Assembly: GCA_050506795.1 (NCBI GenBank)
Contig: JBJHCF010000061.1
Span: 1 to 24,008 of the forward strand
Direction: 5' to 3'
Source: Opitutia bacterium
Lineage (GTDB): Bacteria > Verrucomicrobiota > Verrucomicrobiia > Opitutales > T3Sed10-336
DNA length: 24,008 bases
The notes below the pieces were generated by a model. It had not been told where the DNA came from. It ran no database searches and saw only the letters and a list, made by a program, of their open reading frames with translations. How positions within the stretch are numbered: position 1 is the first letter of the stretch; every line of letters starts with the position of its first letter. Shown piece by piece: positions 2,947 through 23,911 of the stretch. Made by a program: the position numbers and the translations under genes.

Positions 2947-3578
2947 TTACAGTTGTCCATAATAATTTGCCGGAAGCTCCCTCAGATGAAAATCCTGACC
3001 GGCAGTGAGGACGGAGCCGTTTTCCAAAACCTTGCGTAAATCCTCATCAGTCGTCCCCGGGTAGGTCGTGGATTCGAGTATGGCGAGCTTGGCCCTTCGG
3101 CTGTCAGTTGGCGATTTTTCGTTGTTCGTTCCTGTGGCTTGCTTCTGAGTTGCAACTCCTCCGCCCGCACTGTCATCGGCTCGTTCCGCCGTCTGCCTGC
3201 GGCCAGTCGCTTGGCGCTCTGCTTGCTCCACCGTCCACCGTTCTGCCTCGGCGGCCAACAACGGGGCGATTGCCTCACCAGTAGCAAGCACGTACGAAAT
3301 ATCCGGTTCCCGATGTTTGTTTAACGGAGTGGGGACACAAATGATAACCGCCTCACATTCCAAACTTTCGTAAAATCCGTAAAGACCACCAAGGTTCCGT
3401 CGTCGATAGGTCGTTTCAGGTCGGCGTGTTCAATATGGCGGATGTAGCTTCGTCCGTTTCGGACGGAATCCACTTTATCAGAATCGATGTCGAGCCCGAC
3501 AACCGATACCCCTGACCGGGCGAATTGAAGCGCTAGAGGTAGGCCGACGTAGCCCAATCCGATAATTGCTATTTGCAT
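2947..3578 (-). pseudogene. Frameshifted, truncated nucleotide-sugar dehydrogenase (WbpA/TviB/WecC type)
   Basis: ATG 3578 gives MQIAIIGLGYVGLPLA (Rossmann motif). After a frameshift near 3362-3365 it continues in another frame as ECEAVIICVPTPL...LESTTYPGTT...GQDFHL. It then diverges before the expected (F)SPER motif and stops at 2947. Confidence 0.85.
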
Positions 3579-3645
3579 GGATCCGGGTGATGAAAAATGA
3601 AGGTTGCGGTGCTTGGCTCGGAGGTTGGTTCTCACGGAATTTTTT

Positions 3646-3775
3646 GACCACAGATTACTCAGATAACACAGATTTAAAGGCAGGAATTTTTGCCGGGCAG
3701 GATGCCCGCATTTCCAGTGATTCTGGCCCTCGCCCCTACCTGTGCCCATCTGTGGAATCCATGACACATGTGGTT
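3646..3775. repeat. Palindromic nonamer-periodic element (CACAGA type) with an internal REP-like hairpin; left flank of MNT-HEPN
   Basis: Left arm gaccacaga-ttactcaga-taacacaga; right arm cctgtgcc-catctgtgg...catgtggtt; internal gggcaggatgccc. Confidence 0.85.
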
Positions 3776-3786
3776 GAAGGCCGCTT

Positions 3787-4197
3787 CTACATCAGTCTAT
3801 CGATCTCGTCCCGGAACCGTCGAAATGTGTTCAATCGGTTTTTCAAAATGTCGAAGGTTACCTTTGGATCGATCCGATCGTATTGATGGACAATGAAATT
3901 TCGGTACCCGATCATGGGAAGGTACGGTTCCGCGGATTCCAGATATCCCGCATCGGCACACGCACGCACCGCTTCCGCTGAGGAAGCTGCCGGGCCTTGG
4001 CCGTTCAAAGCGAGAATTCGCTCGGCAATGTCAATGACGGCTTCGATCGCAATTTGGAGACCTCGTTCAGCGATTGCCTGAAGCTCCCACTCGGCAGAGA
4101 ATGCTTCAAACGTAACTTCAGAAAAACGGTCCTCCAACTGACGGACTCGTTCGTCCATAAGGGCCAGCTTTCGCTGTATTGGGCCATTTAGCCTCAT
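3787..4197 (-). CDS. HEPN/DUF86 ribonuclease toxin (HepT-like)
   Basis: ERGLQIAIEAVIDIA helix and RNFIVHQY (Rx4H) HEPN active-site motif; directly downstream of an MNT gene. Confidence 0.9.
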   Translation of the reverse strand: MRLNGPIQRKLALMDERVRQLEDRFSEVTFEAFSAEWELQAIAERGLQIAIEAVIDIAERILALNGQGPAASSAEAVRACADAGYLESAEPYLPMIGYRNFIVHQYDRIDPKVTFDILKNRLNTFRRFRDEIDRLM

Positions 4198-4201
4198 GAC
4201 A

Positions 4202-4645
4202 TTAGGCCAAGCTTCTGGGTCGTTCCCGCCGGTACCTCAACTGGCGGCCGTACGCCGCCATGGTTTCCTCGTACCGCCGACAGGTTTCCGAGAAGAACCG
4301 GGCGTACGTTTCCTTCGAACGACAATGAATCAAGCTTCCCTGTAGGGCCTCGAACGCGTAAACAGGGTCGGCGTCTTTGAGCAGCCCCAAATCACAACGC
4401 ACCCCTCGGTGAAGGTCACTGATCCGGGAAATAAGCTCGATAAAGCGCTCTCCCGAAAGAGGGGGCTCCGCGTACACCGCCAGATCCAAATCGCTGTGAG
4501 GGCGGATCACCCCGCTTTTCGCGGAACCGTGCAAAAGCGCGAACACCGCTTCCGGGAATGCCCGGGCGAGGCAGTCGGCGATCGCCTCGCGATTCACAGG
4601 CACTTCCGCCTCGTGAGTGTCCAGATAATGTTTTGATAGGGGCAT
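4202..4645 (-). CDS. Minimal nucleotidyltransferase antitoxin (MntA-like)
   Basis: LHGSAKSGVIRPHSDLDLAV (GS-x10-DxD) motif; 147 aa; paired with the HEPN gene. Confidence 0.9.
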   Translation of the reverse strand: MPLSKHYLDTHEAEVPVNREAIADCLARAFPEAVFALLHGSAKSGVIRPHSDLDLAVYAEPPLSGERFIELISRISDLHRGVRCDLGLLKDADPVYAFEALQGSLIHCRSKETYARFFSETCRRYEETMAAYGRQLRYRRERPRSLA

Positions 4646-5899: not shown

Positions 5900-6283
5900 T
5901 CACGAATTATTCTCAAATCTCATCACTCGTTTAATGCCCAGTTTTGCGTGTTTGAAATTAAGCAGGAGAGATATATCCAAGCCTGTGATGTTAAGGTAGC
6001 CTAGCATCTGCGCCAAATGAGTTTCATTGAATGCGGAAACCACCTTTGGATCGACAATCACGTCTTCTACGATCATGTCGGGAATCAATGTACCAATATG
6101 GTGCCCTTCGTAATACACTGGGAATTCTCTATGAAACTCAACGTTGAAACCTTTTCTCCGAAGTTCGATACCCAGCGCTCGCTCGTAAAGCTTCTCGTCC
6201 AACCCAGGCTTTAATTTATAAAGAACCCGGTGGGCTGAACCGATAACTGCATTAGATGTGGGGTCGAAAGATTTAAGGGGCAT
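5900..6283 (-). CDS. GxxExxY protein (PD-(D/E)XK nuclease-like)
   Basis: [12 protein letters not shown] signature, PDMIV...VDPK putative catalytic residues, AQMLGYL...LLLNF C-terminal motif. Start at ATG 6283; the upstream ORF extension translates the repeat. Confidence 0.92.
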
Positions 6284-6323
6284 TGGCTTCGCGAAAGATT
6301 CGGGGTTTTTATTGATAAACGGT

Positions 6324-6404
6324 ACCACGAACTGCACGAAATTCACGAAATGATTCTAATACTCTCGTTCCCAAAACTTCGTGCATTTCGTGTGCTTCGT
6401 GGTT
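6324..6404. repeat. Palindromic nonamer-periodic element (CACGAA type), upstream flank of GxxExxY and direct repeat of 5804-5876
   Basis: accacgaa-ctgcacgaa-attcacgaa ... ttcgtgcat-ttcgtgtgc-ttcgtggtt. Positions 6344-6404 match 5816-5876 at 54/61, including the loop. Overlaps the gmd TAA stop. Confidence 0.9.
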
Positions 6405-7703: not shown

Positions 7704-7988
7704 TCAATCCGGGTTTGGGTCTTCGGCCACTTGGGAAGCCGGCTGGCGAGGATAGCGCTGAAGAATGGCGTCCGCAATCCAGATGTCTTCATCCAGCGTC
7801 TCCCACCTCAAAGCGCGGCCTCCGACCCGAAGGGATACCTCTGAAAGCGCAGCCGGACCTGCCCCGGCAAGCCGGGGATAGTAGGCGACGGGAAACGAAT
7901 GGGTGGATCCATCGGCTAGCTCAAGAACGACCTGGCCATTCTCAACCTTCGCTGAGGTCGCGATATACTGGGGTTCGGGATTATCCAT
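7704..7988 (-). CDS. DUF2442 protein (putative antitoxin)
   Basis: VLELADG...FPVAYYPRL...GRALRWETLDEDI pattern; its ATG overlaps the stop of the DUF4160 gene. Confidence 0.85.
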   Translation of the reverse strand: MDNPEPQYIATSAKVENGQVVLELADGSTHSFPVAYYPRLAGAGPAALSEVSLRVGGRALRWETLDEDIWIADAILQRYPRQPASQVAEDPNPD

Positions 7989-8214
7989 GAAACTTCTTCC
8001 AGGCTTGGAATAATACTTCCTGATTTCGGGCAACGATTCCTTTTATTTCATTTAGTTCGTGACCGGGAAACCCGTGATTGCGCGAGAGGCTTACAGGATC
8101 GAGCCAAAACTTGGCTTCGTAATCATCCCTCGCCACATGAATGTGCGGGGGCTCATTGAGTTCTCTACTGTAAAAATGGAGGCGATAAGGTCCAATCCGT
8201 AAAACAGTGGGCAT
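7981..8214 (-). CDS. DUF4160 protein (putative HicA-like toxin)
   Basis: MPTVLRIGPYRLHFYSRE..EPPHIHV...AKFWLDPV pattern; 77 aa; coupled to DUF2442. Confidence 0.88.
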   Translation of the reverse strand: MPTVLRIGPYRLHFYSRELNEPPHIHVARDDYEAKFWLDPVSLSRNHGFPGHELNEIKGIVARNQEVLFQAWKKFHG

Positions 8215-8436: not shown

Positions 8437-8605
8437 GTGCCTGGTTCCTGGTTCTTTGTTCCTGGTTCTTGGTTCTTTGGGGGACCGGTTTCTTAGCCAC
8501 AGATTGTACGGATAAAAAGGATTTCCGGCGATCAGGATAGCCCGCGCTCCCAAGCCGGCGGCCATGCCGGAGCATGGCCCTCCGGAGAATTCGCCCCACG
8601 CCCCA
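8437..8605. repeat. Heptamer array, CACAGA-type left arm and reverse copy of the REP/MITE core
   Basis: GTTC(C/T)TG-type x6 array 8437-8478; agccacaga-ttgtacgga at 8495; 8540-8585 is the reverse complement of the core at ~9633-9680. Confidence 0.8.
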
Positions 8606-8615
8606 TTCCGAGACT

Positions 8616-9539
8616 TCACTTTTCCTGGAAGTATTCGATGGTTCGCTGGAGGCCTTCTTTGAGGGCGACGGCGGGTTGCCAGTCGAGGTATTGCCGGGCC
8701 AGGGTGAGGTCCGGGCGGCGCTGGACCGGGTCGTCGGCGGGGAGCGGATCGAATACCACTTTCGATTTGCTGCCGGTCAGGTCGATCACCTGGCGCGCCA
8801 ACTCCAGGATGGTGAATTCGTTGGGATTGCCGATGTTGACCGGGCCGGGAGTCTGTTCCTGTTGCATCAGGCGCAGAATGGCTTCGATCAAGTCGTCCAC
8901 GTAACAGAAGGAGCGGGTTTGTTTTCCCTCGCCGTAAACCGTGATATCGCGGCCGCGCAGGGCCTGGACAATAAAATTGGATACCACCCGTCCGTCGTCC
9001 TCCAGCATGCGGGGGCCGTAGGTGTTGAAGATTCGCCCCACCCGGATGTCGACTTTGTTCTCGCGATGGTAATCGAAAAACAGCGTTTCCGCGCAACGCT
9101 TGCCTTCGTCGTAGCAGGCCCGCGGTCCGATCGGATTGACGTTGCCGCGGTAGGTTTCGGTCTGCGGGTGCTCGGTGGGATCGCCGTACACTTCGGAGGT
9201 TGAGGCCTGGAAGATGCGCGCCTTGACCCGCTTGGCCAGGCCGAGGCAATTGATGGCCCCCATGACCGAGGTCTTCACCGTCTTGATGGGATTGTATTGG
9301 TAATGAATCGGCGACGCCGGACAGGCCAGGTTGAAAATCCAGTCGACCTCCAGCTTGAAGGGATCGGTCACATCGTGTCGCAACAACTCGAAACGCCGGT
9401 CGTCGAGCAGATGAACGATGTTGTTCTTCCGTCCGGTGAAGAAGTTGTCGAGGCAGATCACTTCGTGCCCGTCGGCCAAAAGCCGCTCACAAAGGTGACT
9501 GCCGAGAAAGCCGGCCCCGCCGGTGACTAAGGTACGCAT
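8616..9539 (-). CDS. uxs: UDP-glucuronate decarboxylase (UDP-xylose synthase)
   Basis: [71 protein letters not shown] and DDPVQRRPD motifs. Confidence 0.95.
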
Positions 9540-9567
9540 GGAATTTGGTTTTGGGTTATCCTGTGAT

Positions 9568-9792
9568 TAGGCGAATGCCGCTCGGACAAGGTGGCGGATC
9601 GAAGGAGTTTATCCGAATCGCATTGGCAATTCCCTGGAGGGCCATGCTCCCGCATGGCCGCCGGCTTGGGAGCGCGGGCATCTTGCCCGCACACCGGCGG
9701 CGCGGGAGCGCCGCCCTCCAGGAAAGGGAAGCACGATCTCGATTCGGTTTCATCAAGCGATCGACCAACTTAACCGAGGGCCATTCGCGATA
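9568..9792. mobile_element. Putative MITE (~225 bp) with terminal inverted repeats and a REP-doublet core; copy 1
   Basis: Ends taggcgaatgccgctcgg / ccgagggccattcgcgata are imperfect inverted repeats. The whole length aligns with 23686-23911. Confidence 0.75.
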
Positions 9793-9808
9793 AAGCTCAT
9801 CCTGCAAA

Positions 9809-10726
9809 TCAAACCAAGTGACGAGCCGTCGATGGCGGCGATTCGGATGCAGCCTCCGCTTGCCGGGAATTCAGCGCGTTCCGGAGGCCTTCCGGATCGC
9901 CAATGTCGCGGCGAATTCCGTCGAGTTCCACGGCGTGAAATCCTTCCTTTTCCTTAATCGCCATCATGGCGTCGGTAAGCTGGATCTCCCCGTTCTTGCC
10001 GGGAGGGGTTCGCTCCAGTTCCGCGAATAGGCCCGGAGTAAACACATAGCGGGCGGCAAACGCGTAGTGGCGGGACTCCCCACCCTCGCCGGAAAGCAAA
10101 CGGATCACCGGCGCCGCACCCGGTTCGGGTTTTTCCACCATTTCCCGAACCCGGAAGAGCCCGGATGCGATTTCCTCACCGCCGGCCACCCCGTAACGGG
10201 CCACCCGCTCAGGAGGAACCGTCTCCACCGCCACCGCCGAGGTGTTCCGGTCTTCCAGCACCTCGACGAGCCGGGTCATGGTCGCCGACGTGCCTTCCGG
10301 ATCCCCGACCGGACTGATAAAGGTGTCTCCCAGCAGAACCCCAAAGGGTTCGTCGCCCGCAAAGGAACGGCCTTGCAGCACCGCGTGGCCCAATCCCTTC
10401 ATTTCGTGCTGGTAGATATAGTGAATGCGGGCCATTTCGGAGAGACGGCGCAGCCCCTCGGCCAACCCGGCTTTTCCCGAGGCTTCCAGCCGCCGTTCGA
10501 GCTCCGGATTCCGGGCAAAATAGTCGGGGATCGCTTCTTTCCCGCGACTGATCACGATCAGGATTTCCGTCAGCCCGGCCGCCACCGCCTCCTCAACCAC
10601 ATACTGGATCACCGGTTTGTCCCCCACGGGCAACATTTCCTTGGGAACGGTCTTGGTGATCGGCAGAAAACGCGTTCCGAAGCCGGCTGCGGGAATGATC
10701 GCTTTGCGGATGCGGGTTGTGTTCAT
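9809..10726 (-). CDS. galU: GalU-like UTP:sugar-1-phosphate uridylyltransferase
   Basis: KAIIPAAGFGTRFLPITKTVPKEML, QHEMKGLGHAV, MVEKP and GEIQLTDA motifs; ATGA overlap with the upstream kinase. Confidence 0.85.
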   Translation of the reverse strand: MNTTRIRKAIIPAAGFGTRFLPITKTVPKEMLPVGDKPVIQYVVEEAVAAGLTEILIVISRGKEAIPDYFARNPELERRLEASGKAGLAEGLRRLSEMARIHYIYQHEMKGLGHAVLQGRSFAGDEPFGVLLGDTFISPVGDPEGTSATMTRLVEVLEDRNTSAVAVETVPPERVARYGVAGGEEIASGLFRVREMVEKPEPGAAPVIRLLSGEGGESRHYAFAARYVFTPGLFAELERTPPGKNGEIQLTDAMMAIKEKEGFHAVELDGIRRDIGDPEGLRNALNSRQAEAASESPPSTARHLV

Positions 10727-11745
10727 GAAATGGTTGAGATGGGATAAACGGGTGCGAACTGCGGTCGGATGACAACGATGTTCTTGGGAGCGAACGCCTC
10801 CTCCAGACGCCGGAACATGGCGTCGTCCTCATAGGTCCCGACGATCGCACCCCCGCTACCGGCAAATTTGGCGCTGGCGCCCGTCCGTCGAGCGGTCTCC
10901 ACCAGGTCGCGATTGCCGTCTCCAACGTCGTAAAGGCTCGCCCGTTTGTCAAAATTGGCGTCGATCAGCTTTCCGAGCTCTCCTTTACCGCCATTGAGCA
11001 ATGAATCGCGAAAGTTCTCCGTCAAATCTGCCCAGAACCGCATCGCTTCACAGACGTCGGCATCGCCTCGCTGCCAGCGAACCTTCAGATCATTATGGTA
11101 AATCTCGGTGCCCTGCGAAAGGTCATCGCGATACGCGATATACAGGGACGGCAGACAGGCGACATCCAGGTTTTCGTACCGGCCGTATCCGTTCTGTTCA
11201 AAATGACCCTTGTCAAAATCCATGTAAACCAATCCCTGATACACCTGCGCCACTCTGTCCTGCAGCCCGGCGGGGATGGCCAGTTCCTCGGTCTCCACCG
11301 ACCGTACCAGATTGGCCAGGACGGGATGAGGAATCGTGACGCCGTAAAACGCCATCAAGGCTCGCAGGCACGCGGTAATGATTGCACTCGAACCGGCCAG
11401 TCCCACACGGTTTGGGATGTCCGAGGAGTACCGAAGAGTGAAGTTCCTGTCGTCGAGTTTGGTTCCCGATTCCCGGCAATGATCGTAGAAACGCTTGATG
11501 CTGGCCTTCAGGAGCCGGAATCCTCCGTAGTAACCATGCTTGCGAACATCGTTATGCAGGGATTCGATGCTCTGAAAAACGGAATGATCACGGCGGCTGG
11601 GTACCAGCTCGATCTCGGGCGACTCCCACATCGAGATGTGGGCGGAAAAATTCGTGAAACAGAACGCGATGGTTTTCCCGAAGTAGCCGTCGGATGGATT
11701 GCCGATCAAACCAGCACGCGGATAGGCGATGGTACGTATAATCAC
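10723..11745 (-). CDS. GHMP kinase, glucuronokinase-like
   Basis: RAGLIGNPSD, GYYGGFRLL, FTLRYSSDIPNRVGLAGSSAII, AGLQDRVAQVYQGLVYMDF and AKFAGSGGA motifs, which recall plant glucuronokinase blocks. GTG start. Confidence 0.85.
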   Translation of the reverse strand: MIIRTIAYPRAGLIGNPSDGYFGKTIAFCFTNFSAHISMWESPEIELVPSRRDHSVFQSIESLHNDVRKHGYYGGFRLLKASIKRFYDHCRESGTKLDDRNFTLRYSSDIPNRVGLAGSSAIITACLRALMAFYGVTIPHPVLANLVRSVETEELAIPAGLQDRVAQVYQGLVYMDFDKGHFEQNGYGRYENLDVACLPSLYIAYRDDLSQGTEIYHNDLKVRWQRGDADVCEAMRFWADLTENFRDSLLNGGKGELGKLIDANFDKRASLYDVGDGNRDLVETARRTGASAKFAGSGGAIVGTYEDDAMFRRLEEAFAPKNIVVIRPQFAPVYPISTIS

Positions 11746-11785: not shown

Positions 11786-12571
11786 TCATTTGAACGAACC
11801 CAAAACCCGTGCCGCCAGTCCGGCGTCGCCGGCGGTGAGGAGGGCGGGGTTGCGGAGGCTGTCCTTGTTGTAGGTGAGGCGTTCGCCGGCGGTGGTGGTG
11901 AGGACCTGGCCGCCGGCGGCTTCGACGATGCACTGGGCGGCGCCGACGTCCCACTCCATGGTGGGTACGTCGCGGAGGTAGAGATCGGCTTCGCCTTCGG
12001 CCACCAAACAGAACTTGAGTGAACTGCCCATGCTCTTGGCTTTCGCGGTGGGAAAGCGTTCCAGGAGAGCTTTGACCTCGGGCCCGGCGTGATCACGGCT
12101 GGCGACAACGGCCAGATTGTTTTCATCGGCCGGTCGAACCCGGATCGAGGCCGGGACGCCGCCACTGTTTCGTTTCCAGGCCCCCTGTCCCGTCTCCGCG
12201 TAATAGGTCCGGTCGAGCGCCGGCACATGAATCACCCCCAGTACCGGCACGCCGTCTTCGATCAAAGCGATGTTAACCGTGAACTCACCGGTCTGCTTGA
12301 TAAACTCCTTGGTGCCGTCCAGCGGGTCCACCAGCCAAAAGCGCCGCCACGATTTCCGGTCGCGAATCTCGGCCTCGTCCGATTCCTCGGACAGAACGGG
12401 CAACCCCGCGTCGAGCTCACCCAAACGCCGGCAGATCAGCGTATGCGCCGCCCGGTCGGCCTGGGTCAGCGGAGAGTCGTCCGCCTTGGATTCGACGGAA
12501 AAAGCGCGTCCGTAATACTTCAGGATTTCGACGCCCGCCTCACGGGCAATCTGCTGGATGGTTTCGAGCAT
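11786..12571 (-). CDS. cysQ: 3'(2'),5'-bisphosphate nucleotidase
   Basis: KADDSPLTQAD, WLVDPLDGTKEFI, GEFTVNIALI, VASRDH, GSSLKFCLVAEG and TMEWDVGAA motifs. Confidence 0.92.
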   Translation of the reverse strand: MLETIQQIAREAGVEILKYYGRAFSVESKADDSPLTQADRAAHTLICRRLGELDAGLPVLSEESDEAEIRDRKSWRRFWLVDPLDGTKEFIKQTGEFTVNIALIEDGVPVLGVIHVPALDRTYYAETGQGAWKRNSGGVPASIRVRPADENNLAVVASRDHAGPEVKALLERFPTAKAKSMGSSLKFCLVAEGEADLYLRDVPTMEWDVGAAQCIVEAAGGQVLTTTAGERLTYNKDSLRNPALLTAGDAGLAARVLGSFK

Positions 12572-12786: not shown

Positions 12787-13392
12787 CTACTCCTCGGTGA
12801 AGCCGGTGCCCGAAGCCGCGATCAGTCCGCGTTTGGTGGTGAAGGCGTAAACGATAGGAAGGACAATGAGGGCACAGGTCAGCAGAAGCATGATCGAGAT
12901 GCCGCCGAAAAAGTACCCGAAGGCCCCGATAACGACCCCCATTGAAATATGGAACACCTCCGGACTGTTGACAATTCTTCCGAACACCGCACCCGCCACC
13001 ACCCCGTAGATCACCATCCACCAGTCAAAAATCACCAGACTGATACCGGTAACCAGGAACATCGGCGCCATGCAGTAGAGGTGTTTGCGCTTGTAGTACG
13101 TGTTGAAAAACAACCCCAGGGCCAGCACTCCGGCGACCACCCCCAATTCGTCCATGTAGTTTTCCGCCTGGGCATCGAGAGCGTAGACGTGGTGGTAAAG
13201 GAGATACGCCCCGGCATAGCCGCGGACCAGGTCGAGCCAGTTCTGCCAGGTACGCAGGATGCCCACCAGGGGAAAGTCACCGGAAGGCAATGAATTTGCG
13301 ATACGACGCCGGATTCGGCTGTTGAAGAAAAGATAGGACGGCGTGAATAGCAGGACAACGGCACCCACCAGTGGCCAAAGATTGTACTCCAT
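12787..13392 (-). CDS. Uncharacterised multi-pass membrane protein (paralog of 13465-14064)
   Basis: Highly hydrophobic. Shares TPxYLF, TWQxWLDxxRG, GAYLLY, DWWxVxYG and FGRxxN blocks with its neighbour. Confidence 0.8.
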   Translation of the reverse strand: MEYNLWPLVGAVVLLFTPSYLFFNSRIRRRIANSLPSGDFPLVGILRTWQNWLDLVRGYAGAYLLYHHVYALDAQAENYMDELGVVAGVLALGLFFNTYYKRKHLYCMAPMFLVTGISLVIFDWWMVIYGVVAGAVFGRIVNSPEVFHISMGVVIGAFGYFFGGISIMLLLTCALIVLPIVYAFTTKRGLIAASGTGFTEE

Positions 13393-13464: not shown

Positions 13465-14064
13465 TCAGCGGTGGGCGATGATCAGGTTCTCCTGGATCAG
13501 GAAGGACAGTGCGATCGGAACGATCAGCAAGGCGCAGATCATCAGCAATTCCAGGCGCAACCCGAACATCATGTATCCGAACGCGCCGATCACCACCGCC
13601 ATAATGGCGAAAAACGACTCGGAGTTGTTAATCAGCCGGCCGAAGATCAATCCGGCCAAAATACCGTACATGACAATCCACCAGTCCACCACGGCAAGAC
13701 TGACGCCGGTGAGAAAGAAAAGCGGTGATAGCGAGTACAGGTGGCACCGGATCTGGTAATAGAGCACCTGGGCGCAGATGCCCGCCAGCAGCACGAAACC
13801 CATGGTTCCCAGTTCCAGGTAGTAGGAGGAATCATCCAATGTCCTTTCCAGGGGAAAGGTATACACATACAGGAGATAGGCTCCGCAAAATCCGCGGATG
13901 CCATCGAGCCAGTGCTGCCAGGTAACGAAGATTCGACTCAGCGGCAGGCCGTTTGACCCGTGCACGCTGTGCACTCGTTCGCGCATGGCGGCGGTGTAGA
14001 AAAGGTATCCGGGGGTCCACAGGACCAGTATGGCCAGGAACAGGAATAATGGATCGAATCGCAT
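13465..14064 (-). CDS. Uncharacterised multi-pass membrane protein (paralog of 12787-13392)
   Basis: Collinear similarity with the adjacent ORF over its full length; hydrophobic. Confidence 0.8.
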   Translation of the reverse strand: MRFDPLFLFLAILVLWTPGYLFYTAAMRERVHSVHGSNGLPLSRIFVTWQHWLDGIRGFCGAYLLYVYTFPLERTLDDSSYYLELGTMGFVLLAGICAQVLYYQIRCHLYSLSPLFFLTGVSLAVVDWWIVMYGILAGLIFGRLINNSESFFAIMAVVIGAFGYMMFGLRLELLMICALLIVPIALSFLIQENLIIAHR

Positions 14065-23685: not shown

Positions 23686-23911
23686 CTAACCGGAACGGCA
23701 CTCGGTTCAGGCGGTGGATCGAAGGAGCATAGCTGAATTGCATCGGCCGTTCCCCTGGAGGGCCATGCTCCGCCATGGCCGCCGGCTTGGGAGCGCGGGT
23801 ATCTTGCCCGCACCGGCGGCGCGGGGGCGCAGCCCTCCAGGAAGCAGAGGCGCGATTCCGATTCGGTTTCTCAAGCGATCAACCGCCTAAGTCGAGTGCC
23901 ATTCAGGCTAG
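23686..23911. mobile_element. Putative MITE (~225 bp); copy 2
   Basis: Terminal inverted repeats ctaaccggaacggcactcgg / tcgagtgccattcaggctag; collinear with 9568-9792. An extra partial left end lies at 23650-23681. Confidence 0.78.

Follow-up and report, generated by a model that had tools for sequence, protein, structure and literature searches.

The window analysed here is a stretch of 24,008 nucleotides from an Opitutia bacterium of the order Opitutales (phylum Verrucomicrobiota); it is contig C61 of a 4.94-Mb genome (G000) that is 97.8% complete. The subject is a pair of genes on its minus strand, a glucuronokinase-family GHMP kinase (10723..11745) and a GalU-fold nucleotidyltransferase of a type associated with this kinase (9809..10726, hereafter the partner), together with uxs, which encodes a UDP-glucuronate decarboxylase (UXS; 8616..9539). 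The original prediction had read these genes as a salvage pathway leading from D-glucuronate (GlcA) to UDP-xylose; its three open reading frames (ORFs) are present on the minus strand at 11745-10723, 10726-9809 and 9539-8616. Comparative sequence analysis supports kinase and partner as a two-gene core module, in which co-occurrence, gene fusions and an altered sugar pocket suggest that the GalU-like protein behaves as a dedicated partner.

Kinase and GalU-like partner

The kinase gene has a GTG start and encodes 340 aa (PF00288). The four blocks by which a plant-type glucuronokinase had been recognized, GNPSD, GYYGG, GLxGSSAI and AGLQDR, are all present (residues 15, 71, 106 and 159). The protein matches Xenopus GKUP (P0184), in which a glucuronokinase is fused to a putative pyrophosphorylase, at 281 bits with 44% identity over 339 aa. 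Identity to animal GKUP proteins is 43-48% (among the matches listed, 120 of 467 long homologues), and to the two halves of a plant protein named glucuronokinase by UniRef 40-42%. Heptose kinase, galactokinase and mevalonate kinase were rejected as identities, each giving at most 39 bits against 281 bits to Xenopus GKUP; the closest PDB match is a heptose kinase, at 39 bits. The nearest relatives are from Opitutales/Verrucomicrobiota metagenome-assembled genomes (MAGs), and many matches are labelled 'glucuronokinase' by JGI. A separate galactokinase-like gene, as judged by motif, is present on contig C13.

In a 58-row quick tree, heptose and fucose kinases being outside the sampling, the plant, animal and bacterial kinases lie on one side of a 100% branch and the 4 GalK-like rows on the other, which agrees with the predicted placement beside plant and animal glucuronokinases. 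On sequence grounds the kinase is assigned to the glucuronokinase family, and not to the heptose, fucose or galactose kinases. Glucuronokinase activity was confirmed for the Xenopus enzyme, and the zebrafish enzyme acts solely on GlcA among 9 sugars tried (PMC3938481); the Arabidopsis enzyme acts solely on GlcA among 6 sugars tried (PMC2823444).

The stop codon of the kinase gene overlaps the start codon of the partner gene in an ATGA at 10726-10723; this detail of the original prediction is read directly in the sequence. In three of the four closest relatives (L013-L015) the overlap is absent and gaps of ~35-90 nt are found. The partner has 305 aa and scores 282 bits against TIGR01099, under the cut-off of 326.8. 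Its fold is that of GalU (TM 0.8-0.9), an AlphaFold model having been used for the fold alone, and identity to canonical GalU is 35-44%. The catalytic motifs GxGTRxLP, the Mg-binding Asp134, EKP and EIQLTD are intact. Three pocket residues are Thr135 (at the site of the glucose-binding Asp), Ala224 and Arg272. A search of the genome for a separate canonical galU and ugd returned ugd, on contig C1, and no other gene of the GalU family.

Occurrence of the pair and sugar pocket of the partner

The survey comprised 301 genomes of the phylum, with a GalU match defined by TIGR01099 at E 1e-40; since the genomes are related and mostly MAGs, 90-100% complete, the counts overstate independence and absences are soft. 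The kinase was found in 78 of the 301 genomes and a TIGR01099 match in 83. Nine genomes were set aside, as their sole match falls in a low-scoring group (169-205 bits), mostly a 650-aa GalK-like/GalU-like fusion with His135. Stand-alone GalU then remains in 74 genomes: kinase and GalU together in 73, GalU only in 1, kinase only in 5 and neither in 222. Within the order, the kinase occurs in 2 of 62 other genomes and any GalU in the same 2 only. A housekeeping GalU, the initial reading of this sole GalU of the genome, was given up in the light of the survey. Kinase and GalU thus occur together in 73 of 78 kinase-positive genomes, but the trio with uxs is not conserved.

The two genes are adjacent in 57 of the 73 genomes and unlinked in 16; in one of the five kinase-only genomes (G286) the partner is cut by a contig end. 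In 24 of 66 loci, some of them from Planctomycetota and Bacteroidota, a GalU-like gene is found no more than 5 kb from the kinase, and fusions of a GalU-type protein with the kinase form at least 5 protein clusters (among the matches listed, 120 of 467 long homologues), with 11 member sequences from four sources. Five genomes in which the kinase has no adjacent partner were tested: in four of them a partner lies at another place, and the fifth has a His-type GalU-like protein only. Clustering of 1895 ORFs from the 66 loci, with Pfam run on 31 cluster representatives, revealed KdsB (4 loci) as the only other transferase beside the kinase in partner-less loci. Two Acidobacteriota (G302, G303) have both an ordinary GalU and a partner-type GalU. 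In the cultured Verrucomicrobium sp. BvORR106 (L057) the two genes stand side by side.

The sugar pocket was compared in an 87-row GalU alignment, from which one incomplete row had been dropped, and in a quick tree. The partner group was defined by exclusion, with two Acidobacteriota references assigned after the motif was visible; 9 His135 rows were grouped by that residue, and the same rows form a 99% branch. In each of the 61 partner rows position 135 is Thr, Ala, Ser or Cys and position 272 is Arg, and 60 of them have Ala, Ser or Gly at 224; one row (G199) comes from a kinase-negative genome. In the references, a small hand-picked set of 16, Asp135 and Arg272 occur together in 11 and neither occurs in 5, while Arg without the Asp occurs in none. 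This pairing pattern of Asp and Arg is an observation of the present analysis and follows no published rule.

A separate test was made on 101 Acidobacteriota genomes, among them the unpublished G353 and G328. The kinase is present in 8, and the top five GalU-like matches are all in kinase-bearing genomes; four are adjacent to the kinase, all have Ser with Arg, and they are 59-100% identical to the query, one being the query itself. The next 25 ranked matches have Asp with Arg in 24 cases and Val with Thr in 1 (23 of 24 with Asp and Arg when the unpublished L166 is omitted), and Arg without the Asp in none. The other three kinase-positive Acidobacteriota have distant kinases and no GalU match, and no transferase domain was found in connection with these kinases, which have long open frames.

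In B. subtilis YngB the glucose moiety is contacted by the residue that follows the Mg-binding Asp. The Asp at this next position also contacts glucose in the P. aeruginosa enzyme, whose D131A variant is nearly inactive (bioRxiv 10.1101/2020.11.30.405621; PMC11796359). Position 272 aligns with Trp224 of RmlA. The W224H variant of RmlA reportedly admits glucuronate. According to a review, W224H broadens the tolerance for sugar 1-phosphates. The pocket pattern of the partner would fit a carboxylate substrate, the net positive charge of the pocket and the roles of Thr135 and Arg272 being presumed from sequence.

Some variants of the system stand apart. Natural fusions of 640-650 aa join a galactokinase-like GHMP domain to a GalU-like domain with His135 (L098:3075-4994, L100:1220-3145, L101:3249-5192 and L089:12028-13953); these probably make up a second salvage system that runs in parallel and serves another sugar. 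G295 has two copies of the kinase. In L026, L027, L030 and L031, three of which are Kiritimatiellia MAGs, the gene directly upstream of the kinase encodes a eukaryote-type hexokinase (PF00349/PF03727).

uxs, Ugd and the surrounding genes

The third gene encodes 307 aa and is single copy in the genome. Its product gives 400 bits to human UXS1 over residues 2-306, against 138 bits for the next family. It is the next gene after the partner, as had been stated, but lies 269 nt off, beyond a palindromic repeat with inverted arms (9611..9730) that lies in the gap. The gap folds strongly (z = -7.4). Copies of this repeat (~110 nt) occur genome-wide, at 71 loci of at least 50 nt on 35 contigs, and are not part of the module. 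Downstream of uxs a half copy of 52 nt (8540..8591) is inverted with respect to 9628-9679 and 94% complementary to it, and another copy lies at 23735-23843; in appearance the repeat resembles a repetitive extragenic palindrome or a miniature inverted-repeat transposable element. A scan of the locus for promoters and terminators gave results near chance level.

uxs is present in 74 of 77 kinase-positive genomes and in 68 of 80 kinase-negative ones, the latter hand-picked out of 223. At 5 kb or less from the kinase it is found in none of the 77 other kinase-positive genomes and in 3 of 66 loci, all from close relatives; directly upstream of the partner it is found in 3 genomes. A conserved trio was rejected on these counts. 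uxs is a common gene, almost universal in the phylum, a consumer of UDP-glucuronate (UDP-GlcA), and a neighbour of the kinase in this lineage only.

The original prediction had argued from the lack of Ugd in the window. The window does contain only a broken WbpA/TviB-type dehydrogenase, but the full-length Ugd on contig C1 leaves this without weight as an argument. Across the phylum, a Ugd query matches 42 of 77 kinase-positive and 72 of 80 kinase-negative genomes. The 35 kinase-positive misses were searched again by family (30 of 35 matches fetched), the 8 kinase-negative misses lying outside this re-search: three have a shorter Ugd type, five a short Ugd-like protein, one was left unassigned and 26 have no Ugd recognisable by motif. 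Of these 26, 21 have the pair and uxs. The sharpest contrast is in genus g62, where uxs occurs in 14/14 kinase-positive against 1/5 kinase-negative genomes, and Ugd in 2/14 against 5/5. Because Ugd is rarer in kinase-positive genomes, salvage may in some cases stand in for it. The gene directly upstream of the kinase is ugd in four loci of family f27 (L183, L184, L205, L216). The short Ugd-like proteins (251-296 aa) are from five kinase-positive genomes without full-length Ugd (L198, L199, L200, L201 and L202).

Downstream of uxs follow gmd, fcl, a MatE-family protein and the broken dehydrogenase, a neighbourhood which suggests a surface-glycan region. The WbpA/TviB-type NDP-sugar dehydrogenase (2947-3767, minus strand) is in two frames and corresponds to about the first 194 residues of an intact paralogue on contig C36. 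An MNT/HepT-type toxin-antitoxin pair, DUF2442 and a PD-(D/E)XK protein (5900-6346) break up the glycan genes (3787-4645 and 7704-8033, both minus strand). On the other side of the module, a CysQ 3'(2'),5'-bisphosphate nucleotidase (11786..12571, minus strand; TIGR01331 above cut-off) is the upstream neighbour of the kinase; it is not part of the module and adjoins the kinase in just 2 of 66 loci. Two adjacent membrane-like proteins of ~200 aa (12787-13392 and 13465-14064, minus strand) resemble paralogues on visual inspection; neither matches Pfam.

A GH115 glucuronidase and UxaC were found in the genome; GH67 was looked for there and not found. No MIOX match was obtained in this genome, in a search without a positive-control match, or in the 77 kinase-positive relatives; outside these, the latter search did match one Acidobacteriota genome, at E 5e-109. 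MIOX, acting on myo-inositol, was on these grounds rejected as the GlcA source, and the GlcA would derive from glycan breakdown rather than from myo-inositol. With Ugd, UxaC and GH115, the genome as predicted could release GlcA and then burn or activate it. One Acidobacteriota genome (L146; G302:C7:248393-249118) has MIOX, kinase, partner and ordinary GalU, and is a candidate for a complete plant-like myo-inositol route.

UDP-glucose could come in this genome from RmlA, from a UAP-like PF01704 protein or from an uncharacterised 3PNN-like transferase (C12:78616, C1:156296, C5:15327); GlmU was looked for in the genome and not found. All 22 tested members of the order without kinase and GalU have ugd and uxs, so GalU is not the usual UDP-glucose source in the order. 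PF01704 is represented in these 22 Opitutales genomes only by a protein of weak score that is probably UAP-like; a literature search for a chlamydial UAP-like enzyme found no paper. The same three candidate UDP-glucose sources are put forward for these genomes.

Proposed route and relation to known systems

In the proposed route the kinase would phosphorylate free D-glucuronate at C1, using ATP, to GlcA 1-phosphate (GlcA-1-P), and the GalU-derived partner would join GlcA-1-P and UTP to UDP-GlcA. The partner would be able to take GlcA-1-P because its pocket has lost the glucose-binding acidic residue while the Arg, now unpaired, remains and could bind the C6 carboxylate; some activity on glucose 1-phosphate may be retained. 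The UDP-GlcA would join a general pool, fed by Ugd too, from which UXS and glycosyltransferases could draw. A dedicated channel onward to UDP-xylose, as originally proposed, is metabolically possible, but uxs is not tied to the pair, and the shared pool is preferred. Judged by sequence, such a route from GlcA to UDP-GlcA by a dedicated kinase/GalU pair feeding a shared pool is probable. We infer the substrates of both enzymes and a flux into surface glycan.

A more far-reaching version is put forward tentatively, with somewhat more doubt than belief. It holds that the partner is a dedicated UTP:glucuronate-1-phosphate uridylyltransferase, which we take to be EC 2.7.7.44, that it arose from GalU by a switch of pocket charge and is widely mis-annotated as galU, and that Ugd has given way to salvage in roughly a quarter to a third of the Verrucomicrobiota that carry the module (21/77), which would then rely on external glucuronate to make UDP-GlcA and UDP-xylose.

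Beside the relatedness of the surveyed genomes, several points weigh against the salvage reading. GlcA specificity of the bacterial kinase is likely but keeps some uncertainty, because in the 58-row tree the bacterial and eukaryotic kinases form separate sub-branches and one conserved block (residues ~204-218) differs between the bacterial and all eukaryotic kinases; specificity could differ. This genome has Ugd and UxaC, so the route is not needed, and the partner is its sole GalU-family gene; likewise, no second GalU was found at E 1e-40 in four partner-bearing Acidobacteriota. The TIGR01099 model does not separate GalU types, because 40 of 301 genomes have a match above its cut-off. The partner branch reaches only 89% in the Shimodaira-Hasegawa-like approximate likelihood ratio test and takes in the GalK-fusion type. 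That Arg272 of the partner faces the sugar C6 is presumed from its alignment with RmlA Trp224, a residue taken to line C6, and not from coordinates. In Klebsiella GalU, Val stands at the Asp site and is dispensable, V138A keeping 67% activity (PMC11796359; bioRxiv 10.1101/2020.11.30.405621).

The best surviving alternative, which is unlikely, is that the partner is an ordinary or broad UDP-glucose pyrophosphorylase that supplies UDP-glucose and travels with the kinase as a nucleotide-sugar cassette, GlcA-1-P being at most a side substrate or that of another enzyme. Its position as sole GalU, the intact catalytic motifs and GalU fold and the non-universal Asp agree with this, as do families f28 and f30, which have the pair but no PF01704 enzyme (0/5 and 0/3). 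Such a role is difficult to reconcile with the 218 of 301 phylum genomes that lack any TIGR01099 match, with the 22 tested order members that live with ugd and uxs and no GalU, with the partner standing beside an ordinary GalU in G302 and G303, and with the lack of the no-Asp, Arg-bearing pocket in both the references and the kinase-independent Acidobacteriota matches.

Slightly less likely again is dedicated salvage of another acidic sugar (galacturonate, iduronate, mannuronate or 4-O-methyl-GlcA), or repair of breakdown products of intracellular UDP-GlcA. The pocket signature points to a carboxylate but not to which one, and the separate branch of the bacterial kinases, their different block and the lack of MIOX in the 77 kinase-positive genomes could be read in this way. 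However, the assayed family members are all GlcA-specific and reject galacturonate, ugd or uxs directly precedes kinase or partner in the 4 loci and 3 genomes given above, and Ugd is depleted where the pair is present. That kinase, partner and uxs form one conserved, co-expressed unit dedicated to making UDP-xylose from GlcA is highly improbable: the order is kept in L013 and L014 (with uxs upstream in L015), and genus g62 and the 21 genomes with pair and uxs but no recognisable Ugd would suit it, yet uxs is common in genomes without the kinase and away from it elsewhere, here a strongly folding hairpin repeat stands between it and the pair, and the genome has Ugd.

If the salvage reading of kinase and partner is true, annotations as 'galU' would often be wrong in Verrucomicrobiota and related phyla, and the pair would offer a probably soluble bacterial route to UDP-GlcA, which serves as donor when hyaluronan, heparosan and chondroitin are synthesised. 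If Ugd is replaced in some uncultured lineages, a glucuronate supplement could aid culturing.

Bacterial kinases of this family have been noted before: in 2010 homologues were named from Solibacter, Dyadobacter and Verrucomicrobium (PMC2823444), and the JGI labels exist. In a literature search no study of a bacterial glucuronokinase or its GalU-type partner was found among the matches listed, subscription journals being outside the coverage. The closest known system is that of plants, where GlcAK (Arabidopsis At3g01640, EC 2.7.1.43), of the same kinase family, and UDP-sugar pyrophosphorylase (USP) follow the same predicted two-step route; a Lilium peptide printed in the same paper matches the GNPSD block of the window kinase (PMC2823444). 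The plant route has USP at its second step (PMC2823444), where a bacterial GalU-fold enzyme stands here, and MIOX is found neither in this genome nor in its 77 relatives.

GKUP of zebrafish and Xenopus follows the same logic of kinase plus nucleotidyltransferase, and the bacterial fusions of GalU-like protein and kinase share its domain order. The GKUP transferase domain lacks the GxGTR arginine and has very low activity (PMC3938481), whereas the bacterial partner keeps its catalytic motifs. No significant BLAST match was obtained between the animal domain and the partner (best E 0.4; 4 eukaryotic proteins, 3 with the domain). As judged by sequence comparison, the partner is not orthologous to the GKUP pyrophosphorylase domain and represents a separate recruitment. 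If the proposed route is true, it would add a third way of activating glucuronate, independent of USP in plants and of the barely active fused domain in animals.

Canonical GalU (EC 2.7.7.9; P. aeruginosa 8F73, B. subtilis YngB, Klebsiella/E. coli) shares fold and catalytic motifs with the partner, which differs in Thr for the glucose-binding Asp with Arg kept, Ala224 for a larger residue, a TIGR01099 score below cut-off and an occurrence that follows that of the kinase. Other bacteria likewise activate a free sugar in two steps, as in the xylose salvage by GalK/GPUT of Solitalea (PMC11267548) and with Fkp of Bacteroides. Those systems use another kinase family, act on neutral sugars and are promiscuous, whereas the pair described here appears to be dedicated.

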